Shown here: positions 6,663-36,006 of the stretch, one piece after another | Numbering within the stretch: position 1 is the stretch's first letter | Layout: each line of letters opens with the position of its first letter | Source of the DNA: Deltaproteobacteria bacterium | GTDB lineage: Bacteria; Desulfobacterota; Desulfobaccia; Desulfobaccales; Desulfobaccaceae | DNA length: 64,000 nt | Direction: 5' to 3' | Assembly (NCBI GenBank): GCA_019309545.1 | Contig: JAFDGA010000023.1 | Span: 1,320-65,319, forward strand | Translations under genes and position numbers: made by a program | The notes under the pieces: model-generated | What the model saw: the letters and a program-made list of their open reading frames with translations, nothing else | What the model was told of the DNA's origin: nothing | Databases searched by the model: none

Positions 6663-9068
6663 TTACCCCAGTTTCGGGGGATGATTGCTGAAGGCAATCT
6701 CCAAAACCTGGTCCATCCGCTCCACCAGGTGAAACTTAAGCCGCTTTTTTACATTCTCGGGTATCTCTTCGAGATCTTTGTCATTCCGGGCCGGGAGGAT
6801 AATCTCCCGAAGACCGGCGCGGTGCGCCGCCAGCACCTTGTCCTTAATGCCGCCGACCGGCAGGACATGGCCCCGCAAGGTAATCTCGCCGGTCATGGCC
6901 AGCCCCTTTTTTACCGGCCGGTCAGATAACAGTGATACCAGGGCGGTGAGCATTGCCACTCCGGCGGAAGGACCGTCCTTGGGGATGGCCCCGGCCGGGA
7001 CATGGATATGGATATCGGTTTTGTCGAAGAAATCCTCGGCCACCCCTAAATAAGGGCCGCGGGCCCGGATATAGCTCAGGGCAGCATCGGCCGATTCTTT
7101 CATAACCTCCCCCAGTTGCCCGGTGAGTTTGAGGCGGCTGTTGCCTGGCATGCGCAGGGCTTCAATAAACAGGATTTCTCCGCCGGTCGGGGTCCAGGCC
7201 AGACCGGTTGCCACTCCCGGTTCGGGATGTTCCAGGGCTGGCTCCCGGTAGAAGCGCAAAGGCCCCAAATAGGCTGGAATCTCGGCTTCGGTAATCCGCT
7301 TCTGGGTGCAAAGGCCCTCAGCGATTTCCCGGGCGACGCCCCGGCAGAGGGCGGCAATCTCCCGCTCCAGGTTCCTCAACCCGGCCTCTCGGGTATATTC
7401 GGCGATCACCCGCCGCATGGCCTCGGGGGTAATCTCCAGTTGCTCGGGTTGCAGGCCGTGGGCCGCCAGTTGCCGAGGTAGCAGGTAATCATAGGCAATC
7501 TGCAGTTTCTCCTCTTCGGTATAGCCCGGCAGTTCCAGGACTTCCATACGGTCCCGCAAGGCTGGAGGGATGGTGTCCAGCATGTTGGCGGTGGTGAGAA
7601 ACATCACCTTCGACAGGTCAAAGCCGACTTCCAGATAATGGTCGGAAAAGGAGAAATTCTGTTCCGGGTCCAGGACCTCGAGCAGTGCCGAGGATGGGTC
7701 GCCCCGGAAATCGGCGCCGATTTTGTCGATTTCATCCAGGATAAACACCGGGTTGTTGCTACCGGCGCGGCGGATGCTCTGGATGATGCGCCCTGGCAAG
7801 GCCCCCACGTAGGTCCGCCGGTGGCCACGGATCTCAGCTTCATCCCGAACGCCGCCCAGAGACATACGGACAAACTTGCGGCCCAAGGCCCGGGCAATGG
7901 ATTTCCCTAGCGAGGTCTTGCCGGTGCCGGGCGGCCCCACAAAACAGAGGATCGGCCCCTTCATGTCGGGCTTCAGTTTGCGCACCGCCAGATATTCCAG
8001 GATGCGCTTTTTGACCTTTTCTAGGTCATAGTGATCTTCATCCAGAATGCGGCGGGCCTGCTGCAGATCCAAGTTGTCTTCGGTGGCCACATTCCAGGGT
8101 AACTCGATCATCCACTCCAGATAAGTACGGATGACCTGATGATCGGGAGAGGTGGGCGGGATCCGGCTGAGGCGGTTCAGCTCGCGCTCGGCCTCCTTGA
8201 AGGCCGCTTCCGGGAGCTGACTATCTTCCAGCCGGGTCCGCAGTTCCTCAATTTCCCGGGTGCGGTCATCGACCTCGCCCAGCTCTTTCTGGAGGGCCTT
8301 GATCTGTTCCCGGAGGTAGTAATCCCGTTGTGCTTTATCTATCTCCCCTTTGACCTGGTTCTGGATTTTTTTGCCCAACTCGAGGATCTCCATCTCTCGA
8401 TTAACCAGGCTCAAAACCTTGCGCAGGCGTTCCTTGACGTCGATGGTTTCCAGCAGATTCTGTTTATCGTTCTTGGCAATATTCATGCTGCCGCCGATGA
8501 CATCGGCAAGGACCCGAGGATCATCGATCTCCCGAACCATGGCCCCCAGTTCCGTAGGCAGATAGGGCGACAGCTCCAACATTTTCAGAAACAGGCCCTT
8601 GACGTTGGAGACCATGGCTTCGATCTCCATGTCGGACTCAAAGTCCTCAGAGATCGGCGTCACCCGGGCCTGTAAATAAGGTTCCTGGGCCACCACCTCT
8701 TCCACCCGGAAACGATACAGCCCCTGAATCAACAGACGCAACACATCGTCCTGGGTTTTGCCCATCTTTAAGATTACCGCGGCGGTGCCGACTTTATGAA
8801 GATTTTCCAGGGTCGGGGCCTCTATGGTGGGTTGGCGGCTGGCCAGGATGCCAATGATTTTATCTTTTAGTAGGGTTTCATCCACTAGATGCTGGGCTGA
8901 GTCCTCCCACACCGTCAACGGGATTACCACCCGAGGAAAGAGCACCAGCTCGTTCATGGGCAGAATGGGCAATAACCGGGAGGCCTCGGCCTCAGTGGCC
9001 GCAGGGATTTCCGGTAGCGCCGATTCTGTCTTTAAGTTTTTCGGTAAGCTCATATTAATATTTTCCAT
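6663..9068 (-). CDS. lon: ATP-dependent Lon protease (endopeptidase La)
   Basis: 801 aa. Lon N-domain, AAA+ Walker A GPPGTGKTS, and C-terminal protease domain with PKDGPSAG catalytic-serine block. Confidence 0.95.
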   Translation of the reverse strand: MENINMSLPKNLKTESALPEIPAATEAEASRLLPILPMNELVLFPRVVIPLTVWEDSAQHLVDETLLKDKIIGILASRQPTIEAPTLENLHKVGTAAVILKMGKTQDDVLRLLIQGLYRFRVEEVVAQEPYLQARVTPISEDFESDMEIEAMVSNVKGLFLKMLELSPYLPTELGAMVREIDDPRVLADVIGGSMNIAKNDKQNLLETIDVKERLRKVLSLVNREMEILELGKKIQNQVKGEIDKAQRDYYLREQIKALQKELGEVDDRTREIEELRTRLEDSQLPEAAFKEAERELNRLSRIPPTSPDHQVIRTYLEWMIELPWNVATEDNLDLQQARRILDEDHYDLEKVKKRILEYLAVRKLKPDMKGPILCFVGPPGTGKTSLGKSIARALGRKFVRMSLGGVRDEAEIRGHRRTYVGALPGRIIQSIRRAGSNNPVFILDEIDKIGADFRGDPSSALLEVLDPEQNFSFSDHYLEVGFDLSKVMFLTTANMLDTIPPALRDRMEVLELPGYTEEEKLQIAYDYLLPRQLAAHGLQPEQLEITPEAMRRVIAEYTREAGLRNLEREIAALCRGVAREIAEGLCTQKRITEAEIPAYLGPLRFYREPALEHPEPGVATGLAWTPTGGEILFIEALRMPGNSRLKLTGQLGEVMKESADAALSYIRARGPYLGVAEDFFDKTDIHIHVPAGAIPKDGPSAGVAMLTALVSLLSDRPVKKGLAMTGEITLRGHVLPVGGIKDKVLAAHRAGLREIILPARNDKDLEEIPENVKKRLKFHLVERMDQVLEIAFSNHPPKLG

Positions 9069-11418: not shown

Positions 11419-12396
11419 ATGCAAGTTGATAAAGAACCGGTAGTCATCGGAGTAGATTTGGGGGGCACTAACCTCCGTCTGGCTCTGGTCACCGGCCAGG
11501 GTGAGATCCGGGACCGGCAAGCTTTTCCTACTCCCAAAGGCCGGGGCGCTCAGGTCCTGCTGGAGAAACTGGCAGAGGCAATCACTACTATGGCCCGGAA
11601 AACCCAGAATCAGAGCATTCAGATTCAGGCGGTCGGTATGGGCGTCCCCGGTCGGGTGCTGCCTGAAGAAGGTCGGGTAATTTTTTCTCCTAATCTGCCT
11701 GAACTAAATGGCTATCAATTGGGCGCCGCGGCCCGGGATTTGCTCCCTTGGCCGCTGGTCATGGATAATGATGCCAATATCTTTACCCTGGGTGAGCAAT
11801 GGCTGGGGGCCGGGCAGGGTAGGGCAAATATTTTAGGGATCACCCTGGGTACCGGCGTGGGCGGCGGGTTGGTGCTCAACGGCAAGATATGGCCTGGAGA
11901 AGCTGGGTCCACGGCGGAAATCGGCCATATTACCATTGATCCCCAGGGCGAGGTCTGCAACTGTGGCAACCGGGGCTGTCTGGAAACCCTGGCTTCCGCA
12001 CCCTGGACTGTGGCCTGGGTCAAGGCCCGTCTGGCCGCCGGTGAATCTTCCTGTTTACGGGCCAGTTGGGAACAGGATCCGGAAAGTCTGGGCGGCCGTC
12101 AGTTGCAACAGGCCGCCGAGGCCGGAGATGCGCTGGCGCAAGCTGCCTTTAACCGGGTGGGCCGAGCCTTGGGTCAGGCTGTTACTGATGTGGTTCACCT
12201 CATGGGGCTCTCCCTGGTAGTCATCGGCGGCAAATTCAGCCTGGCCTGGGATCAGTTTATCGGCTCCTTAGAGGATGAACTAGATCACCGTCTGACCCTT
12301 TTTCCCCGTCGGCAACTACAGGTGGTCCCGGCCACGTTGGGGGACAACGCCGGACTCTTGGGCGCGGCCAGACTGGCCTGGGACAAGGTCCCATGA
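11419..12396 (+). CDS. ROK-family sugar kinase (glucokinase-like)
   Basis: 325 aa. N-terminal ATP motif GVDLGGTNLRLA and ROK zinc motif GHITIDPQGEVCNCGNRGCLE. Confidence 0.8.
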   Translation: MQVDKEPVVIGVDLGGTNLRLALVTGQGEIRDRQAFPTPKGRGAQVLLEKLAEAITTMARKTQNQSIQIQAVGMGVPGRVLPEEGRVIFSPNLPELNGYQLGAAARDLLPWPLVMDNDANIFTLGEQWLGAGQGRANILGITLGTGVGGGLVLNGKIWPGEAGSTAEIGHITIDPQGEVCNCGNRGCLETLASAPWTVAWVKARLAAGESSCLRASWEQDPESLGGRQLQQAAEAGDALAQAAFNRVGRALGQAVTDVVHLMGLSLVVIGGKFSLAWDQFIGSLEDELDHRLTLFPRRQLQVVPATLGDNAGLLGAARLAWDKVP

Positions 12397-23631: not shown

Positions 23632-24879
23632 TCAGAGCCGCTGGTCGCGGCTGGCGTCGTAAAATATATTGTCTGGCTCCTGCTGGCCCAGCACCCGGCG
23701 GTAGGCCTCCACCATAAAGCCGGCGATGATCTGGTTGGTCATGATTACCGCGGGATCGGGACGGTACTGGCAAGAGGCCCGGGGGTGCGAGTGGGGGGCC
23801 GTCCGGCGCTGGCGCACGATCTCCGCCAACCCCAGCAGTTCCGCCGGGGTCCGGGTATGGCGGGCCGGATCATAAACCACCACCTGACCGGCGGCGACAT
23901 CGCTGCCGCCGCTGATCAGGATTTTCTGGTGAGCTTTACATAATTCACTCAGAATGATCCTAGTCTCAAAATTATCGACCCCGTCAAAAATTATCTGGTA
24001 CGGGGAGATATCGGTTTCCTGGTCTAAGGCGACCGGGAGGAACCGGCTATTGAGGCCGAACAACCGGTTCAGGCGGGCCGACAGAGCTTGGGCCTTGTTT
24101 TTCCCCAGGCCCTGGGAGAGAAACACCTGGCGGTTTAGATTGGTCATCTCCACCACATCCGCATCCATAAAGGTGAGGTTCGTCGCGCCCAGCAAGGCCA
24201 GCCCCAAGCCGATAAAATTGCCTAAAGCCCCGGCCCCCACCACACAGAGGGGGGGATGGCAGCGCGGGAGCGGCAGTGGCGGTCGCGCATAGGCAATCAC
24301 CTCTGGCGATACCGGCTGCCCCATGAGGATATTCTTGGTCTCTTCCAAGGCCAGCCCGGCAATGATGATGTTTAGCACGTCGTCATCAAAAGGCGCGGCG
24401 GGCAGGTTGCGGGGGGACAGCAACTGCTCCAGTTCCTGCCATTCCCGCCCCTTCAGATAAGTAAAGACCTTGAAGCCTTGCTGATCAGCCTGCTGGTAAG
24501 GGAAGCCGCGGATCACCGGCCGGGGGGCGCGGCCGTCTTGAGCCAGCAATAATTTGTTGGCCAACCCGTACTGACTGAGATCCACCAGCACCTGGCAACC
24601 AGTAAATAGGTCCTCCAGCACCGGGTGGGTGAAGTATCCGGGCAGATGGACCAGGCGCAGGTCAGGATTGACTTGGCGCCCAATGTCGATCAGGTGCGGC
24701 TCCAGACGGGGGGCGATGACTACTAGTTGATTCAGCCCCAGGGCCGCGGCCGACATCACGTACAGCGAGGCCAGGCGATCATCGTCGCCGACCACGCCGA
24801 TCCGGGCCGCCGCAAGTACCGCTTGATTCCAACCCGGGATGCGCAGTTGTCGATCCAGTCTTACCGACGTCGGCCGCAT
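23632..24879 (-). CDS. E1-like (ThiF/MoeB/UBA family) adenylyltransferase with tandem degenerate + active adenylation domains
   Basis: 415 aa. Residues ~205-415 carry the intact motifs VVGAGALGNFIGLGL, TNLNRQ and DNFETR. Residues ~8-200 repeat the E1 N-terminal pattern (RQLRIPGWNQAVLAAARIGVVG), but the glycine loop is replaced by GDDDRLAS. Its ATG overlaps the JAB stop (TAATG). Confidence 0.8.
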   Translation of the reverse strand: MRPTSVRLDRQLRIPGWNQAVLAAARIGVVGDDDRLASLYVMSAAALGLNQLVVIAPRLEPHLIDIGRQVNPDLRLVHLPGYFTHPVLEDLFTGCQVLVDLSQYGLANKLLLAQDGRAPRPVIRGFPYQQADQQGFKVFTYLKGREWQELEQLLSPRNLPAAPFDDDVLNIIIAGLALEETKNILMGQPVSPEVIAYARPPLPLPRCHPPLCVVGAGALGNFIGLGLALLGATNLTFMDADVVEMTNLNRQVFLSQGLGKNKAQALSARLNRLFGLNSRFLPVALDQETDISPYQIIFDGVDNFETRIILSELCKAHQKILISGGSDVAAGQVVVYDPARHTRTPAELLGLAEIVRQRRTAPHSHPRASCQYRPDPAVIMTNQIIAGFMVEAYRRVLGQQEPDNIFYDASRDQRL

Positions 24880-25676
24880 TACAATATTTCCAGCTTTTCC
24901 AGCTTATAGGTGATGGGATTGATTTTTTCCTTGACTTCCCCGGCCAAAGCGGCCAGTTCAACCGGCGTCAGGGACTGGCCATTGTCCACCAGGACGATCT
25001 CGGCGTTTTGGTGGCTCACCGTGGTCTGGCCCGAGAGGATGGCCCGCCGCTTGTAATAGATCTGCTGCTGATGCCAGCCCTCGTCGCCGATGACGATGCC
25101 GTAACTGAACCCACCGTAAATGGTTTCCAGGATCCGGGCTTGGGCCACCGGGACATCAGTAATCAGCGAGACGCTGCCTTGGGCTAAATCGGGCTCGGCG
25201 AACCGGTCGGCCACCAACAGGGTCAAGTCCTTGATCAAAATTTCTTTCTTGGCGATGGGCTTCTTAGAGAGGGCGGTGACATAATCGAGCACAGTGAGGT
25301 GATTCTGCTCATCAATGGCGGAGAAAGCATGGAACTCGAGTTCGCCATGCGAGTGAATCCAGCCGTTGATAAAGCGGTCGGCGGCCAGGGTTTCCTGAAA
25401 AGCGGCGATTTTCTCCGGGTCGATGCTGGTGTACTCCAAGACATTCTGTTCATTTTTGGGCAAGCCGATATCGATAATGAGCTCCGGGTTATCCCGCCGG
25501 GCCAGGGTATAGCCGTACCATTCATAACTGCTGTGGTGGATGGCTCCCACCAATTCGTTGATCTTAAAGGCCTTGGAGCGGGCGTAAGAGGTCATAGGAA
25601 TTTCCTGGGGCAAGGAGTCCAGGATGATCTCTTGCGCCACTGGGCGTTGCAGTTGTGACAGGCTTTTAAATCTCAA
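24879..25676 (-). CDS. JAB/JAMM (MPN+) metallopeptidase
   Basis: 265 aa. WIHSHGELEFHAFSAID (H-x-H-x8-S-x2-D) with a Glu (SSYEWYG) about 56 residues upstream fits the JAMM zinc site. The TTG start overlaps the AAA+ stop (TTGA); an alternative ATG is at 25595. The C-terminal ~125 aa are unassigned. Confidence 0.7.
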   Translation of the reverse strand: MRFKSLSQLQRPVAQEIILDSLPQEIPMTSYARSKAFKINELVGAIHHSSYEWYGYTLARRDNPELIIDIGLPKNEQNVLEYTSIDPEKIAAFQETLAADRFINGWIHSHGELEFHAFSAIDEQNHLTVLDYVTALSKKPIAKKEILIKDLTLLVADRFAEPDLAQGSVSLITDVPVAQARILETIYGGFSYGIVIGDEGWHQQQIYYKRRAILSGQTTVSHQNAEIVLVDNGQSLTPVELAALAGEVKEKINPITYKLEKLEIL

Positions 25677-26776
25677 TTTAATTTCATCCTGACATATCGC
25701 TCATCCACTACCAGCTTGCCAGTATGGCTGCCGGGCAGCCGGAACATATCCTCAAATAACACCCGGTGGATGATACTGATCAGGCCGCGAGCCCCGGTGC
25801 GTTCTTGTTTGGCCCGCTGGGCGATCACCTTCAAGGCATCGTCGACAAAGGTCAGCTCGATGCCCCAGGCCTTGAGGTCGTTGATATAGGCGCGCAGCGG
25901 ACTGTCTTCGCTTCTAATCATGATTTCCTGGAGTTCTTGCGTGGTTAATAAGTCATAGACAATTCTCACCGGAAAGCGGCCCATGAGTTGTCGTTCCATG
26001 CCAAATACTACCAGGTCCTCGGTCAGGAGATGATCCTGCCAATTGCCGCCGAAGCCATGGCGCTCCATCCGTTTTTCGACAATGGCGTCGAGCTTCTCGT
26101 AAACCCCGCCGGCAATGAAAAGCACGTGTTTGGTGGACAGGGTGATTCTTTCCTTGCCCATCTCAATGGTATTTTCCACTCCCTCCACCAGCTTTAAGAG
26201 GCCTTTCTGAACGCCGCGGCCCGATACATCCCGGTAGGCCACGTTCTCAGTGGCGATTTTGTCAACCTCATCGAGATAGACTATGCCCATCTGGGCCAAA
26301 TGAGGGTTGCCGGCGGCGGCGACCAGTAGGTCGGCCAGGATATCGCTGGTGTTCTGTCCGACATAGCCGGTTTCACTGAATTTGGTTAAATCTTCGACCA
26401 CAAAGGGAACCCCCACCAGTCCCGAGGCGGTTTCGCAGGTGTAAGTTTTGCCGCAGCCGGTGGGCCCGATCATTAACAGGTTGGCCTTGGGAGTTCGGGT
26501 GTGGCGCAGGGCGGCGCCGATGTCACCGCCGTCTTCGGCCAACATCTCTTTGAGGGCGTTGCCTAAGCGTTTATAGTGGAAGGCAATGGCGGTGGCGATA
26601 ATCTTCTTGCCTTTTTCCTGGCCGATCACAAACCGATCTAAATGCGCCTTAAAATCAGCCGGGGTTTTATCAAATTCGACGACCTGTTGAATGGCCTCGA
26701 GAGTTTGAGCTTCTCGTTGTTGCTCAATTTTCTCTTTGATCCGCCGCCGGCTTTCCTCTGATAATCTATCAAACAT
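25673..26776 (-). CDS. ClpX-family AAA+ unfoldase paralogue lacking the N-terminal zinc-binding domain
   Basis: 367 aa, collinear with the ClpX AAA+ module. Motifs: FVIGQEKGKK, Walker A GPTGCGKT, pore-1 loop TGYVGQN, Walker B IVYLDEVDK, DVSGRGVQKGLLKLVEG, sensor region TGARGL. There is no C4 zinc finger and no RKH loop. The IGF-loop position is shortened to RHGFGGN. Confidence 0.85.
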   Translation of the reverse strand: MFDRLSEESRRRIKEKIEQQREAQTLEAIQQVVEFDKTPADFKAHLDRFVIGQEKGKKIIATAIAFHYKRLGNALKEMLAEDGGDIGAALRHTRTPKANLLMIGPTGCGKTYTCETASGLVGVPFVVEDLTKFSETGYVGQNTSDILADLLVAAAGNPHLAQMGIVYLDEVDKIATENVAYRDVSGRGVQKGLLKLVEGVENTIEMGKERITLSTKHVLFIAGGVYEKLDAIVEKRMERHGFGGNWQDHLLTEDLVVFGMERQLMGRFPVRIVYDLLTTQELQEIMIRSEDSPLRAYINDLKAWGIELTFVDDALKVIAQRAKQERTGARGLISIIHRVLFEDMFRLPGSHTGKLVVDERYVRMKLN

Positions 26777-26846
26777 AGTTCACCAAATATTGTTTTAGCT
26801 TTGTGTTAAATATTCGTTTATCCGGGATGACCGGCCTTTTCTGGCG

Positions 26847-27278
26847 TTAGGCTCGGCCTGGTCCCCGGAGTCGCTTCCGCTGCCACAGGGTGAGAAAATG
26901 GAAGCGGCCCAGTAGTTCCGGGTTAAGAGCCGGATTTAATTTAAACAGCGGTCCACACAGCAGAATCTCGGCTGGGGAGTGCACGAACTGCAGGTAAGGA
27001 TTGTTGACTGCCGCGATAATTGCCATGGTCACTTGATATTCCGGGGCAGTACCCAGAGCAAACAGCGGAGGTTGGAAAAAAGCTTTGTTTGGCACCGGCT
27101 CGTGTGCAAAGATTTCCACCGGCCACTGCTCTAAGGGCTGATCGAGGAGGGCGACAAAGCTGTTCCCCAAGCCATAGGCCTTTACTAAAGTGCATATTCT
27201 GGTAAAAAGGCTGCATTGAAAAGGCGGTTTGTTTTTTCTCTGCGCCCTTTCCCCTCTTATTTGCTGCAATAGGGCCAT
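26847..27278 (-). CDS. hypothetical protein (operon-embedded, 143 aa)
   Basis: Its ATG lies 1 nt after the stop of the upstream 384-aa ORF (TGAtATG). I recognise no motif. Coding is inferred from the tight coupling within the cassette. Confidence 0.5.
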   Translation of the reverse strand: MALLQQIRGERAQRKNKPPFQCSLFTRICTLVKAYGLGNSFVALLDQPLEQWPVEIFAHEPVPNKAFFQPPLFALGTAPEYQVTMAIIAAVNNPYLQFVHSPAEILLCGPLFKLNPALNPELLGRFHFLTLWQRKRLRGPGRA

Positions 27279-27279
27279 A

Positions 27280-28434
27280 TCAGGTGTATCTGTTTTTTAC
27301 CTCGACCTGCCCGGAGACAATTTTGGGATGATCGGCGGAAATCCGGTAATCATCGAAATCGACGGTCCGAACATGCTGAGTTATGCGATCCAGACTGTGA
27401 TAACCGTTGCGGCGGCGACTGTTGTAACCATAATACAGGGCGTTAATGCCTTCCTCCAGGGCCTGGATGACATTTTCGGCAGTAAAGTTTTTGGTTGTCT
27501 CGTAATCGCCGGTGCAGATTTTCTGCCAGGAAGCGTAGCCGAACAGGAAGGGGTGTTTATATCTTTCCAGCACCAGGGGCTGTAGACCGGCCAGAGTGGA
27601 AACCGCCACCCGACAGTCGGGGAATAGATAAAAGCGACCATAGTAATCTTTGAGGACATATTCGCCGATGTGTTTATAGATGATGTATTCGTTGCTGAAG
27701 CCGGTTTTAAAAAACCCGAAGCCATCCACCTCTAATGAACCTTGCCGGGCTAGGGCGAGGAGAATTGGGAGATAAGTACTTTGGGTCCGGACCAGCTGTT
27801 GTCGTTCCGCCAGCGCCTGTCGGAGACGATCTCTTTCCTGATCAATTATATATTTTTCCAAAGCCAGGCGAAACCACTCGTACAACTGTGGGGCCAACAT
27901 CAAACCTTCTAAAGGTTCGGGTCTGGTTGCCGCAGTGGCTTCAAGCCTTGTCACTAAATTTTGCAGTAATTCTAAATCCAGCAGCTTATCTACCTTTTGG
28001 TCATCGATTTTGGAGATTTCCAGCTTCTCCCGCAGCAAATCCATTATTTCTGTTTCGGTAAGTGGTATTCTCTTTAAACCGGCTTTTCTTCTCAAAAAGT
28101 GGGGCATTACCTCGAAAATTATGGTTCTGACCTGACTATCGATAGGTAGATCATTGATCTCCGGATCATGGCCAAATTTCTGTAAACCGGCCCGCCGCAG
28201 TTGCTGATAGGAGGTGGGGTGGATTTTTTCGTAGTTTTCCACCAGGGAGGCCAAACTCAAGGTTTTGACAAACAGCTTTCCCGCCCTGGCAATTAGGGGG
28301 CTACCAGGGGGTGGCGTGAACTGACCATCCGAGTTCTGAACTTCGCAAGCTATTTCCGGATCAAACAGTAGTGGTAGATAGATAAAGCCGCCTTCTATGA
28401 CAATCTCAAGATTTGATTCCAGCAACTGTTGCAT
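27280..28434 (-). CDS. hypothetical protein with candidate E2-like (UBC-fold-like) C-terminal region
   Basis: 384 aa. Residues ~235-345 read as strand-rich segments (FYLFPDCRVAVS, PLVLERY), then HPF (294-296), then Cys307 (QKICTG; codon 27514-27516) 10 residues later, then a helix (TAENVIQALEEGINALYYG). This is the order seen in E2 catalytic cores. It is pattern-level evidence only. Confidence 0.45.
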   Translation of the reverse strand: MQQLLESNLEIVIEGGFIYLPLLFDPEIACEVQNSDGQFTPPPGSPLIARAGKLFVKTLSLASLVENYEKIHPTSYQQLRRAGLQKFGHDPEINDLPIDSQVRTIIFEVMPHFLRRKAGLKRIPLTETEIMDLLREKLEISKIDDQKVDKLLDLELLQNLVTRLEATAATRPEPLEGLMLAPQLYEWFRLALEKYIIDQERDRLRQALAERQQLVRTQSTYLPILLALARQGSLEVDGFGFFKTGFSNEYIIYKHIGEYVLKDYYGRFYLFPDCRVAVSTLAGLQPLVLERYKHPFLFGYASWQKICTGDYETTKNFTAENVIQALEEGINALYYGYNSRRRNGYHSLDRITQHVRTVDFDDYRISADHPKIVSGQVEVKNRYT

Positions 28435-28478
28435 TACTGACTGCTCCAGTAATGGCAGACAATAATCATAGTTTAAGG

Positions 28479-29291
28479 CTAGTTTAAAGTTAACCTCATC
28501 ATATAGAAACTATCATTATTTTCATGATCGAGGGAAAGCACCTTCATAATTTGAAAGCCCAGGCGCTCATAGAGTTTTACTGCGCCGATCTTAACCAGCT
28601 CAACGTCTAATTCTACATATTTAACCTTTTTTTGCTTGAAGTTAGCGATACAGTTTTCAATTAACGCCGTCGCGATGCCCTTCCCTCGATGCTCGGGATG
28701 CACTGCGATCCTCAAGATCACCGCTCGGTGGCCTAGTTCACAGATACAGCCGATCAGGTAGCCTAAAATTTCTGTTGTTTCAAATATATAAAATAAGTGG
28801 TTCAGGGCCTGGCGAAAATTATGGTATTCCCAGAAGTCCAGGAAGGATAGCCGATCGATTTCCAGGACTTTATCCAGATCGCTCTCCGTAGCCATGCGGA
28901 TGTAATTACTGTAATTGCGATAAGGTCTACCTCCTTCTTGAGGTTTGATGGCCCGCACCGGCACGTAGAGATATTGTTCTCCGACTTCAGTTTCCTGCAC
29001 TTCGGCATAATCTCTAGCCTTGCCGTCAACCTCTCGACCTCTGCAGAGCAACTTGCCACCGGCCAACTGTCTTTTAATGTCTTCAAGGACTTGTTGTTCT
29101 TCGATGCTCCAATTGGTTTTACTTAAGGTTTCTTCACACAGCTTCCGGAGCGGTTTACCCTCGTAACTGCCGGGCTCGAAAATCTCGATTAACCCTTCTC
29201 CGGCCTGTCCCGGCATGATTTCGATCACCAATGATTGCGGCTGTGCCCGTTCAGCCGGTTGCTCAGCTTTCTTTGATTCTATTTCGGTCAT
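28479..29291 (-). CDS. fusion protein: N-terminal ubiquitin-like (beta-grasp-like) module ending in Gly-Gly + C-terminal RimI-like GNAT acetyltransferase
   Basis: 270 aa. Residues ~135-270 are a clear GNAT (ILRIAVHPEHRGKGIATALIE, VELDVELVKIGAVKLYERLGF). Residues ~20-121 show a Ub-like pattern (LVIEIMPG..GLIEIFEPG, long helix, KLLCRGREVDGKARDYAEVQ, YLYVPVRAIKPQEGG) with GG at residues 120-121 (28929-28934). AAGAGG RBS. Confidence 0.6.
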   Translation of the reverse strand: MTEIESKKAEQPAERAQPQSLVIEIMPGQAGEGLIEIFEPGSYEGKPLRKLCEETLSKTNWSIEEQQVLEDIKRQLAGGKLLCRGREVDGKARDYAEVQETEVGEQYLYVPVRAIKPQEGGRPYRNYSNYIRMATESDLDKVLEIDRLSFLDFWEYHNFRQALNHLFYIFETTEILGYLIGCICELGHRAVILRIAVHPEHRGKGIATALIENCIANFKQKKVKYVELDVELVKIGAVKLYERLGFQIMKVLSLDHENNDSFYMMRLTLN

Positions 29292-35163: not shown

Positions 35164-36006
35164 ATGGGAACAATCGATCTATTCTGGATCTTTCTGATGG
35201 TCATGGCCCTGCAACCGCTTATCCGCCAGAAATTCCTGGTGATGTCCAGACAACGATTGCTGGCCCGTTTAGAGAAGGCCCGGCAATCCCGGGTGATCAT
35301 GATGATCCACCGCATGGAGACCATGAGCCTGCTGGGCTTTCCGATCGTGCGGTATATCGACGTCAATGATTCTGAGGAAGTCATCCGGGCCATCCACCTG
35401 ACCGACCCTGAGGTCCCGCTGGATTTAGTGCTACATACCCCGGGCGGCTTGGTGTTGGCTTCGCTGCAGATCGCTCGGGCGATCCACCGACATCCTGGCA
35501 AGGTTACGGTCTTTGTGCCCCATTACGCTATGTCGGGAGGCACGCTGATCGCCTTGGCCGCGGATGAAATTGTCATGTGTGAACATGCGGTGTTGGGGCC
35601 GGTTGATCCCCAGTTGGGTCAATATCCGGCTGCCTCGCTGTTAAAGGCGGTAGCCCGCAAGCCGGTGGCCGAAGTGGATGATCAAACTCTGATTCTGGCC
35701 GATCAGGCTGAAAAAGCTATCTGGCAGGTACATACTAGTGTCCGGGAGTTGCTGGCCGACAAGTTCCCCACCGATAAGGCCGATGAGTTGGCCAAGCTGT
35801 TGACGGAAGGCAAGTGGACGCACGATCATCCCATCACCTTTAAGGCAGCCCAGGAAATGGGACTGCCGGTGAACAGCGAGATGCCGCAGGAAATCTTTCA
35901 ACTCATGGGACTCTATCCCCAGCCGGTGCGTCATCAGCCCACGGTAGAGTATCTCCCCATCCCCCGGCGGTTTGACCGGCGGGGTTCGAAATCAACCGGA
36001 GCATAA
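35164..36006 (+). CDS. SDH-family Clp-fold serine proteinase
   Basis: 280 aa. LDLVLHTPGGLVLASLQIARAIHRHPGKVTVFVPHYAMSGGTLIALAADEIVM matches the ClpP-fold SDH (serine dehydrogenase proteinase) family, with an N-terminal TM anchor. Confidence 0.7.
   Translation: MGTIDLFWIFLMVMALQPLIRQKFLVMSRQRLLARLEKARQSRVIMMIHRMETMSLLGFPIVRYIDVNDSEEVIRAIHLTDPEVPLDLVLHTPGGLVLASLQIARAIHRHPGKVTVFVPHYAMSGGTLIALAADEIVMCEHAVLGPVDPQLGQYPAASLLKAVARKPVAEVDDQTLILADQAEKAIWQVHTSVRELLADKFPTDKADELAKLLTEGKWTHDHPITFKAAQEMGLPVNSEMPQEIFQLMGLYPQPVRHQPTVEYLPIPRRFDRRGSKSTGA

Follow-up and report, generated by a model that had tools for sequence, protein, structure and literature searches.

A ClpX-like AAA+ ATPase without ClpP-docking loops, encoded in a conserved bacterial gene cassette with a ubiquitin-like protein

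Introduction

Several bacterial operons are known which encode a ubiquitin-like protein (Ubl) with a C-terminal glycine together with a ThiF-type activating enzyme (E1) and, usually, a JAB/JAMM peptidase, namely Bil (BilABCD), Bub of types I and II, and type II CBASS with Cap2 and Cap3 (PMC11601603). None of them has been described with an AAA+ unfoldase, and the words "ATPase", "AAA" and "unfold" are absent from the cited paper. Of the Clp proteins, only ClpS was linked to Ubl/E1/JAB operons by Iyer et al. in 2006 (PMC1779556). The subject of this work is a stretch of 64,000 nucleotides (the window) from a Deltaproteobacteria bacterium of the family Desulfobaccaceae (GenBank assembly GCA_019309545.1, contig JAFDGA010000023.1), in which the gene for a ClpX-like AAA+ unfoldase belongs to a cassette of six; the other five encode a Ubl, an E1, a JAMM peptidase and two proteins designated here p384 and p143. 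Unlike the operons mentioned above, this cassette contains neither a recognisable E2 nor a DUF6527 protease, and it does contain an AAA+ unfoldase. In the literature covered, i.e., open-access full texts in PMC and bioRxiv, no account was found of a Ubl/E1/JAB operon that includes a ClpX-like ATPase. Together this suggests a bacterial Ubl operon that brings its own unfoldase, derived from ClpX; such an operon has apparently not been described before.

Similar logic, consisting of a Ubl tag, an E1, an AAA+ ring and removal of the tag by a JAMM protein, is found in the 26S proteasome (Rpt1-6 and Rpn11) and in the archaeal SAMP/UbaA/JAMM system with PAN or Cdc48. The ATPases of those systems form the classical Rpt/PAN/Cdc48 clade, whereas the cassette ATPase falls into the ClpX/HslU clade and has no associated proteolytic chamber; the comparison is one of analogy and not of homology of assembly. 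Yeast Mcx1, a member of the ClpX family, activates ALAS independently of ClpP and provides a precedent for a ClpX-family unfoldase working without ClpP, although it belongs to another lineage and has no link to a Ubl system. A bacterial tagging system with a dedicated AAA+ unfoldase exists also in Actinobacteria, where Mpa/ARC reads a small protein tag, Pup, by means of an N-terminal helical or coiled-coil region (PMC8755798). Pup is disordered, is attached by the glutamine-synthetase-like ligase PafA and leads to a 20S proteasome; the present cassette, in contrast, lacks proteasome genes and encodes an E1, a JAMM peptidase and a Ubl predicted to be folded.

Results

The ATPase and its relation to ClpX

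The minus-strand open reading frame (ORF) at 25673..26776 is a real gene with a product of 367 amino acids (aa). Its best matches among PDB sequences were ClpX chains (phmmer, E = 2.7e-58), with residues 38-361 paired to ClpX residues 67-402, and in an end-to-end alignment the large and small AAA+ domains were about 37-40% identical to those of canonical bacterial ClpX. An AAA+ module matching ClpX from the VIGQ block (residues 50-53) to the sensor-2 region (TGARGL, 327-332), as proposed in an initial annotation of this DNA, is borne out by the PDB alignment. The same annotation had pointed to a preserved pore-1 loop, and GYVG was indeed found at residues 137-140 (26357..26368, minus strand). 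Alignment of 48 family members showed that this loop is invariant, as are Walker A (GPTGCGKT, 104-111), Walker B (IVYLDEVDK, 165-173), pore-2 (RDVSGRGVQ, 182-190), the arginine finger (GRFPV, 266-270) and sensor-2; the catalytic motifs of the ATPase are intact.

Scores against the ClpX models of NCBIfam remained under the equivalog thresholds, with 268.6 bits for PRK05342 (cut-off 359) and 235.5 bits for TIGR00382 (cut-off 370.75). HslU was a distant second, the 159.3 bits for TIGR00390 (cut-off 362) being split over three stretches, and the protein does not show the combination of cut-off score and I-domain which marks a member of HslU. Its sole cysteines are C108 and C114, so that a C4 zinc finger is absent; in place of the ClpX zinc-binding domain there are 37 N-terminal residues (26666..26776, minus strand), which precede the start of ClpX homology at residue 38. 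They are charged, rich in E, R, Q and K, free of Cys, Pro and Gly, and weakly conserved across the family. The loss of this domain had been recognised correctly at the outset. Family members carry the label "ClpX" in JGI annotations, and "AAA family ATPase" or "hypothetical protein" in those of NCBI.

In comparison with canonical ClpX (E. coli; PRK05342/TIGR00382), the AAA+ domains and all motifs listed above are therefore shared, whereas the zinc-binding domain, the RKH loop, the IGF loop, the linkage to clpP and an equivalog score are wanting. Judged from its sequence, the protein is an AAA+ motor derived from ClpX in which the translocation pore is intact; it is not a ClpX equivalog and is devoid of the ClpX-specific elements for contacts with substrates, adaptors and ClpP.

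Docking-loop deletions and the question of ClpP

For comparison of the loops, the ATPases of the family were placed in one alignment with ClpX of E. coli and canonical ClpX proteins from other genomes (L068-L072). At the site of the RKH loop (7 residues, EMGKERI; 26144..26164, minus strand) a gap against all these ClpX proteins was present in every member of the family; the 7-residue deletion, which leaves a GKER remnant, agrees with the missing RKH loop noted earlier. Four of the five canonical controls have GGRKHP at this position, and the remaining one (L071) has SSKN.

The region of the IGF loop, which in ClpX carries [ILMV]-G-F within about 21 residues, is altered more strongly. Next to the remnant RHGFGGNW (residues 239-246; 26039..26062, minus strand) lies a deletion of 15 residues, and 15 of the about 21 loop residues are gone in every family member. 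The equivalent of Ile268 of E. coli ClpX is polar or variable, and the region of Val274 is deleted. What is conserved at the remnant is a hydrophobic residue (F/L/I/V/Y), followed by x-G-[DN]-W; the tripeptide itself varies across about 60 species (HGF, QGF, HGL, QGI, LNV, KKL and others), HGF being restricted to a Desulfobacca-like subclade, and its register against IGF depends on the aligner (FGG or HG|F with HMMER and MAFFT). Because of this variation, no ClpP-docking motif is conserved in the family. The initial annotation had described an IGF loop reduced to HGF: the shortening holds, by 15 residues, and the idea of HGF as a residual docking motif is not supported. More distant relatives (representatives of clusters at 50% identity, 357-428 aa) likewise have no CxxC motif and short RKH and IGF regions, with the Trp of the remnant conserved. 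When a metagenome scan was aimed at distant stripped-down relatives, canonical ClpX only was returned, the back-translated patterns being too generic.

In E. coli ClpX, residues I268, F270 and V274 insert into clefts of ClpP; the substitutions I268L, F270L and V274A cause severe defects in ClpP binding, and a changed length of the IGF loop lowers the affinity for ClpP (PMC7112951). A loop shortened this far, by 15 of about 21 residues, and deprived of both the Ile equivalent and the region of Val274, makes docking of the cassette ATPase onto ClpP very unlikely. The earlier wording, according to which the protein may or may not dock onto ClpP, can be sharpened, in view of the loop loss and the E. 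coli mutants: it very probably does not.

Gene neighbourhoods point in the same direction. A clpP gene was adjacent in 0 of 63 family loci, hslV was likewise seen in no family locus, and neither clpP nor hslV nor a second ClpX-like gene was found within the window, in accordance with the adjacent clpP reported as missing before. Among control loci of canonical ClpX, ClpP was nearby in 4 of 5 and, in a second set, in 37 of 80; the second set consisted of the canonical ClpX loci returned by the metagenome scan mentioned above. None of these 80 loci contained JAMM, Ubl, p384 or p143.

Distribution of the family and the gene cassette

The ATPase family comprises more than 120 clusters at 67% identity or higher, with proteins nearly all of about 367 aa. 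A scan of 185,579 genomes, one per species, yielded 63 loci, mainly from Desulfobaccales, Syntrophobacterales and Desulfarculales (Thermodesulfobacteriota), from Methylomirabilota and from Binatia; single cases carry the labels Acidobacteriota, Nitrospiraceae and others. Across orders and phyla, the ATPases are 65-75% and the Ubl proteins 60-70% identical.

The cassette was mapped by placing the proteins neighbouring the ATPase in the window on the family loci, and the counts refer to loci with enough flanking DNA. Its order is Ubl, p384, p143, ATPase, JAMM and E1. Immediately 3' of the ATPase gene the JAMM gene was present in 58 of 60 loci, in 48 of these with an overlap of 4 nt; p143 was found in 53 of 58 loci, p384, located upstream, in 48 of 51, and Ubl in 48 of 49. 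The E1 gene is part of the cassette in 37 of 39 loci, 28 times downstream and nine times upstream. In the window the cassette extends over 23632-29291 on the minus strand, with gaps of 44, 1 and 70 nt and overlaps of 4 and 1 nt between the genes. Promoter and terminator sites within it were no more numerous than in shuffled sequence. Since the genes flanking the cassette vary between genomes, it can be regarded as an autonomous module.

The initial annotation had offered recruitment by a Ubl tag as one way in which the unfoldase might be engaged. With a gene order kept in about 60 species this idea has become much stronger, and the gene content indicates that the ATPase is wired to a ubiquitin-like system; that the ring itself would recognise the Ubl is an inference from this arrangement.

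JAMM peptidase and E1

The gene downstream of the ATPase (24879..25676, minus strand) shares its first 4 nt with the end of the ATPase gene and encodes a putative JAMM/MPN+ (JAB) metallopeptidase with a C-terminal extension of about 130 aa. The motif E...H-x-H-x(7-8)-S-x-x-D is present, with E52, H108, S119 and D122 invariant and H110 in 47 of 48 members, and Prok-JAB matches were obtained for 8 of 13 members (best E = 2.4e-4).

An E1-like adenylating enzyme is encoded at 23632..24879 (minus strand; Pfam ThiF, 97 bits). Its active ThiF domain comprises residues from about 212 to 402, and the catalytic motifs are intact: G215-x-G217-x-x-G220 and NLNRQ are invariant, C314 occurs in 43 of 43 and C370 in 41 of 43 sequences. 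The N-terminal half (residues 1-200) is a degenerate copy of the C-terminal half (201-415; hhalign, E = 6e-5 over 160 columns), having VVGDDD where GxGxxG would be expected. The protein would thus appear to be a single-chain pseudo-dimer, with a layout reminiscent of the inactive and active adenylation domains of eukaryotic E1s. Pfam and NCBIfam searches of the cassette proteins brought up no sulfur-transfer domain, rhodanese included.

Ubiquitin-like protein and fused acetyltransferase

The Ubl modifier domain in the window consists of residues 1-121 of a 270-aa ORF (28929..29291, minus strand) and ends with ...RAIKPQEGG. In about 50 loci the C-terminal PQEGG of the domain, about 121 aa in length, is invariant; the protein either ends there or continues with 1-45 unrelated residues or with a GNAT domain, the tails being mostly of 0-10 residues. 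Such variable tails behind an invariant Gly-Gly are the signature of a precursor which is trimmed to expose the Gly-Gly. The AlphaFold2 (AF2) model had a predicted local distance difference test (pLDDT) value of 83 overall and of more than 90 for residues 20-115, with strands at 21-27 and 34-38, helices at 48-57 and 63-76, and further strands at 80-83, 97-100 and 106-115. SUMO/Smt3 was the top Foldseek match (E = 0.032, probability 0.85), and the list consisted mostly of ubiquitin-like domains, with Atg8, SUMO, Ufm1, EccD-Ubl, USP7-UBL, elongin B and talin F1 predominating. A profile search of PDB sequences gave nothing meaningful for the Ubl.

Behind the Gly-Gly, the ORF in the window (28479-29291, minus strand) continues into a RimI-like GNAT acetyltransferase domain (28479..28928; Pfam Acetyltransf_1, E = 6.7e-18; NCBIfam rimI, E = 1.2e-16, below the cut-off of that model). 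This fusion was found only in the window and in its three closest relatives (L004-L006). In two other loci, L023 (10176-10592) and L024 (9949-10377), a homologous GNAT is a separate gene between JAMM and E1; since it occurs both fused and separate, the acetyltransferase can be regarded as a recurrent accessory of the cassette. If the JAMM peptidase cleaves behind the Gly-Gly, the fused domain would be set free.

Proteins p384 and p143

The protein p384 (384 aa; 27280..28434, minus strand) is of unknown family; its 693 homologues are all unnamed and without a Pfam domain. Invariant are C274, H294-P295, C307 and H346. In the AF2 model (pLDDT 81), the C-terminal part shows, in this order, a long helix, a beta-meander, an invariant loop Y-K-H294-P-F, C307 and a helix. 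The order of elements equals that of the UBC/E2 core, and on the basis of this model an E2-like role may be put forward, as a hypothesis only. Residues 10-60 are modelled as strand-strand-helix-strand-strand; the N-terminus could be a second small beta-grasp-like domain, for which Foldseek gave no support.

Directly upstream of the ATPase gene lies that for p143 (143 aa; 26847..27278, minus strand), a fast-evolving protein with 25-70% identity between members, in which the motifs NPYL and PLF.L are conserved and no Cys or His is. Matches in Pfam, NCBIfam or PADLOC were not obtained. An adaptor role is proposed solely because of the position of the gene immediately upstream of the ATPase, which would suggest p143 as a candidate adaptor.

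Unusual loci and neighbouring genes

Two loci carry archaeal labels. A metagenome-assembled genome (MAG) labelled Woesearchaeota contains the full cassette (L057), and a single-cell genome labelled Nanoarchaeota contains the ATPase gene with two JAMM genes (L058); the ATPases show 56-60% identity. Transfer into DPANN archaea would be one explanation, mis-binning or contamination the other. The Binatia MAG JBOHVJ01 has two complete cassettes on separate contigs (L010, L012), with ATPases 73% identical to the protein of the window, which reflects either a duplication or strain heterogeneity of the bin. In a contig resembling Desulfobacca acetoxidans (L002), an ORF for a Cys-containing protein of 62 aa (CRSC...CPGW; 12044-12232) is located between JAMM and E1; it is absent from the window.

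A ClpX-like protein of 522 aa with 43% identity was found in two MAGs labelled archaeal (L064, 2476-4044; L067, 7425-8993). It has an N-terminal extension of about 190 aa, and the region of the IGF loop is wholly gone. Its gene adjoins one for an Mrr_cat restriction-endonuclease-like protein and unknown ORFs, with no Ubl cassette, and the ClpX motor seems to have been repurposed here a second time, in a different way.

Two further protease genes are located in the window. A ClpP-like serine protease of the SDH type (35164-36006, plus strand; PF01972, E = 2e-113) is encoded about 6 kb away from the cassette. It was considered as a peptidase partner and rejected, being absent from all other family loci, and is probably unrelated to the cassette. 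A full-length Lon with LON substrate-binding, AAA and Lon_C domains (6663-9068, minus strand) is probably the housekeeping Lon of the organism.

Discussion

A pathway in which proteins are first marked with the Ubl and then unfolded or extracted by the ring accommodates best what the cassette encodes, namely a GG-ended Ubl with E1 and JAMM peptidase, a pore-competent AAA+ ring without three interfaces specific to ClpX, and no sulfur-transfer or biosynthetic enzyme. We consider it somewhat more probable than its opposite, at roughly 55%, that the ATPase is the dedicated unfoldase of the conserved six-gene Ubl cassette and that ClpP is not its partner.

Several results weigh against this interpretation. 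Concerning an E2, chains of this type appeared in the Foldseek comparison of p384 with the PDB only at ranks 20, 22 and 31, with non-significant E values of about 2.5; there was no match to Pfam Prok-E2 or UQ_con among 45 members, hhalign against four eukaryotic E2s was negative, and neither a profile search of the PDB nor Foldseek against BFVD gave a significant match. The JAMM protein of the window reached 17.3 bits in Pfam, below the gathering score of 25, and the profile of its family found no JAMM protein among the PDB sequences. For the Ubl, no single Foldseek match attained E <= 0.001, the best being 0.032, and for this reason its predicted ubiquitin-like fold is rated as good but not proven. 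Finally, on the complete 4.7-Mb chromosome CP070692.1 (L001/L060), only Ubl, ATPase and JAMM are present (L001, 9334-11901). Of the E1, 35 C-terminal residues are left just upstream, and p384 and p143 are absent nearby; the trio can thus persist without adjacent E1, p384 and p143. This reduced cassette represents either decay or a minimal functional trio.

An anti-phage or conflict system of the Bil or type II CBASS kind, where the Ubl is put on proteins of an invader which the ATPase then unfolds or extracts, would largely overlap with the mechanism preferred here and differ in biological role only. The self-contained module amid differing flanking genes and its sparse occurrence, about 63 of 185,579 species representatives, would be in keeping with defence; moreover, the E1 resembles the CBASS E1-E2 and BilD models of PADLOC, and where bacterial Ubl operons containing E1 and JAB are known, they serve in defence (PMC11601603). 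The PADLOC matches, on the other hand, concern the generic E1 domain only (best E = 2.4e-14; BilD, 0.0016), with none for Ubl, p384, p143 or JAMM; ATPase and Ubl are unusually conserved across orders and phyla, unlike fast-evolving defence genes, and genes of phages or mobile elements were not seen beside the cassette in the loci inspected. A defence function is held to be unlikely. Less probable still is a sulfur-carrier or biosynthetic pathway, with a carrier similar to ThiS, MoaD or CysO that is activated by the E1 and trimmed by the JAMM peptidase, while the ATPase remodels an enzyme of the pathway, as mitochondrial ClpX remodels ALAS, and no tagging takes place. Ubl, ThiF-type E1 and JAB are the classic arrangement of sulfur carriers (PMC1779556), and p384 gave no significant match to E2 proteins. 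Yet among the cassette genes there is none for a rhodanese, a cysteine desulfurase, a cysteine synthase or any further enzyme of biosynthesis, the E1 shows a two-domain layout of the eukaryotic type, with the domain duplicated, and the Ubl, with 121 aa, an extra helix and a core beginning at about residue 20, is unlike the compact carriers of 66-90 aa and finds its best structural matches in SUMO, Atg8 and Ufm1 rather than in ThiS or MoaD; in addition, unfoldase, p384 and p143 would be left without a role in the known carrier pathways.

It might also be thought that the protein is still a specialised ClpX, which delivers Ubl-marked proteins to a ClpP encoded elsewhere, using the residual hydrophobic residue of the loop. 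ClpX is after all the closest family, and the remnant keeps a hydrophobic residue ahead of G-[DN]-W; the extent of the deletion and the altered Ile268 and Val274 positions speak strongly against docking, since far milder changes severely impair the binding of E. coli ClpX to ClpP (PMC7112951), and the linkage to ClpP is nil (0 of 63 loci), which makes this explanation highly improbable. The chances of a chaperone for maturation or recycling, acting on the Ubl precursor (e.g., Ubl-GNAT) or on stalled adducts of the Ubl with E1 or p384 and not on targets further down the pathway, appear slightly smaller again. The minimal set retained in L001/L060 is just Ubl, ATPase and JAMM, and the precursors bear variable tails or a whole enzyme domain in need of removal; most tails, with 0-10 residues, would however hardly require an unfoldase, and JAMM peptidases of known systems process Ubl precursors without ATPases.

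If the ATPase is indeed the dedicated unfoldase of the Ubl cassette, the following course of events could be envisaged. The JAMM peptidase would trim the Ubl precursor after the Gly-Gly, in the window also freeing the fused GNAT, and the E1 would adenylate the exposed glycine and probably form a thioester, possibly on the near-invariant C370. The Ubl may then be transferred to target proteins, possibly via p384 with its Cys307 and His294. A hexameric ClpX-like ring would engage the marked protein, perhaps with the help of p143 and of its own charged N-terminal segment, which takes the place of zinc finger and RKH loops, and thread it through the GYVG pore. At the ring, the JAMM peptidase might remove the Ubl, in the way Rpn11 acts on the Rpt ring of the proteasome; that the two genes overlap almost universally by 4 nt argues for co-translation and a stoichiometric pair, and a physical complex of ATPase and JAMM would be in line with this. 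The outcome would be unfolding, extraction or remodelling and not degradation by ClpP, possibly with hand-over to another protease. With no ClpP-docking loops and no peptidase in the cassette beyond JAMM, the product is probably an unfolded or remodelled protein, not peptides.

Taken to its full extent, the scheme would amount to a self-contained bacterial "tag, unfold, untag" machine, present mainly in Thermodesulfobacteriota and phyla near them. It would be built from a folded Ubl, a two-domain E1, a ClpX-derived hexamer whose binding elements for ClpP and adaptors were traded for partners from the Ubl system, and a pore-side JAMM peptidase in fixed ratio with the motor, and would do without a proteolytic chamber. 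This more specific proposal is tentative, and we regard it as rather less probable than not. With such a machine, bacteria would have arrived independently at the Rpt/Rpn11 or Cdc48 logic, starting from a Clp motor.

Conclusions

For annotators the family is a warning, as the nature of the gene is conveyed by none of the names in use, "ClpX", "AAA family ATPase" and "hypothetical protein". Unfolding that depends on a Ubl and is carried out by ring ATPases is characteristic of eukaryotes and archaea, with the proteasome and Cdc48/p97, while the bacterial Pup-Mpa system uses an unrelated tag. If the interpretation given here is true, the cassette would be a bacterial counterpart of the module formed by a tag-recognising unfoldase and a deubiquitinase, and a compact system of six genes would be at hand for reconstituting tag recognition, translocation and tag removal. 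It would also show how a Clp ATPase could be repurposed through deletion of its interfaces for ClpP and adaptors.

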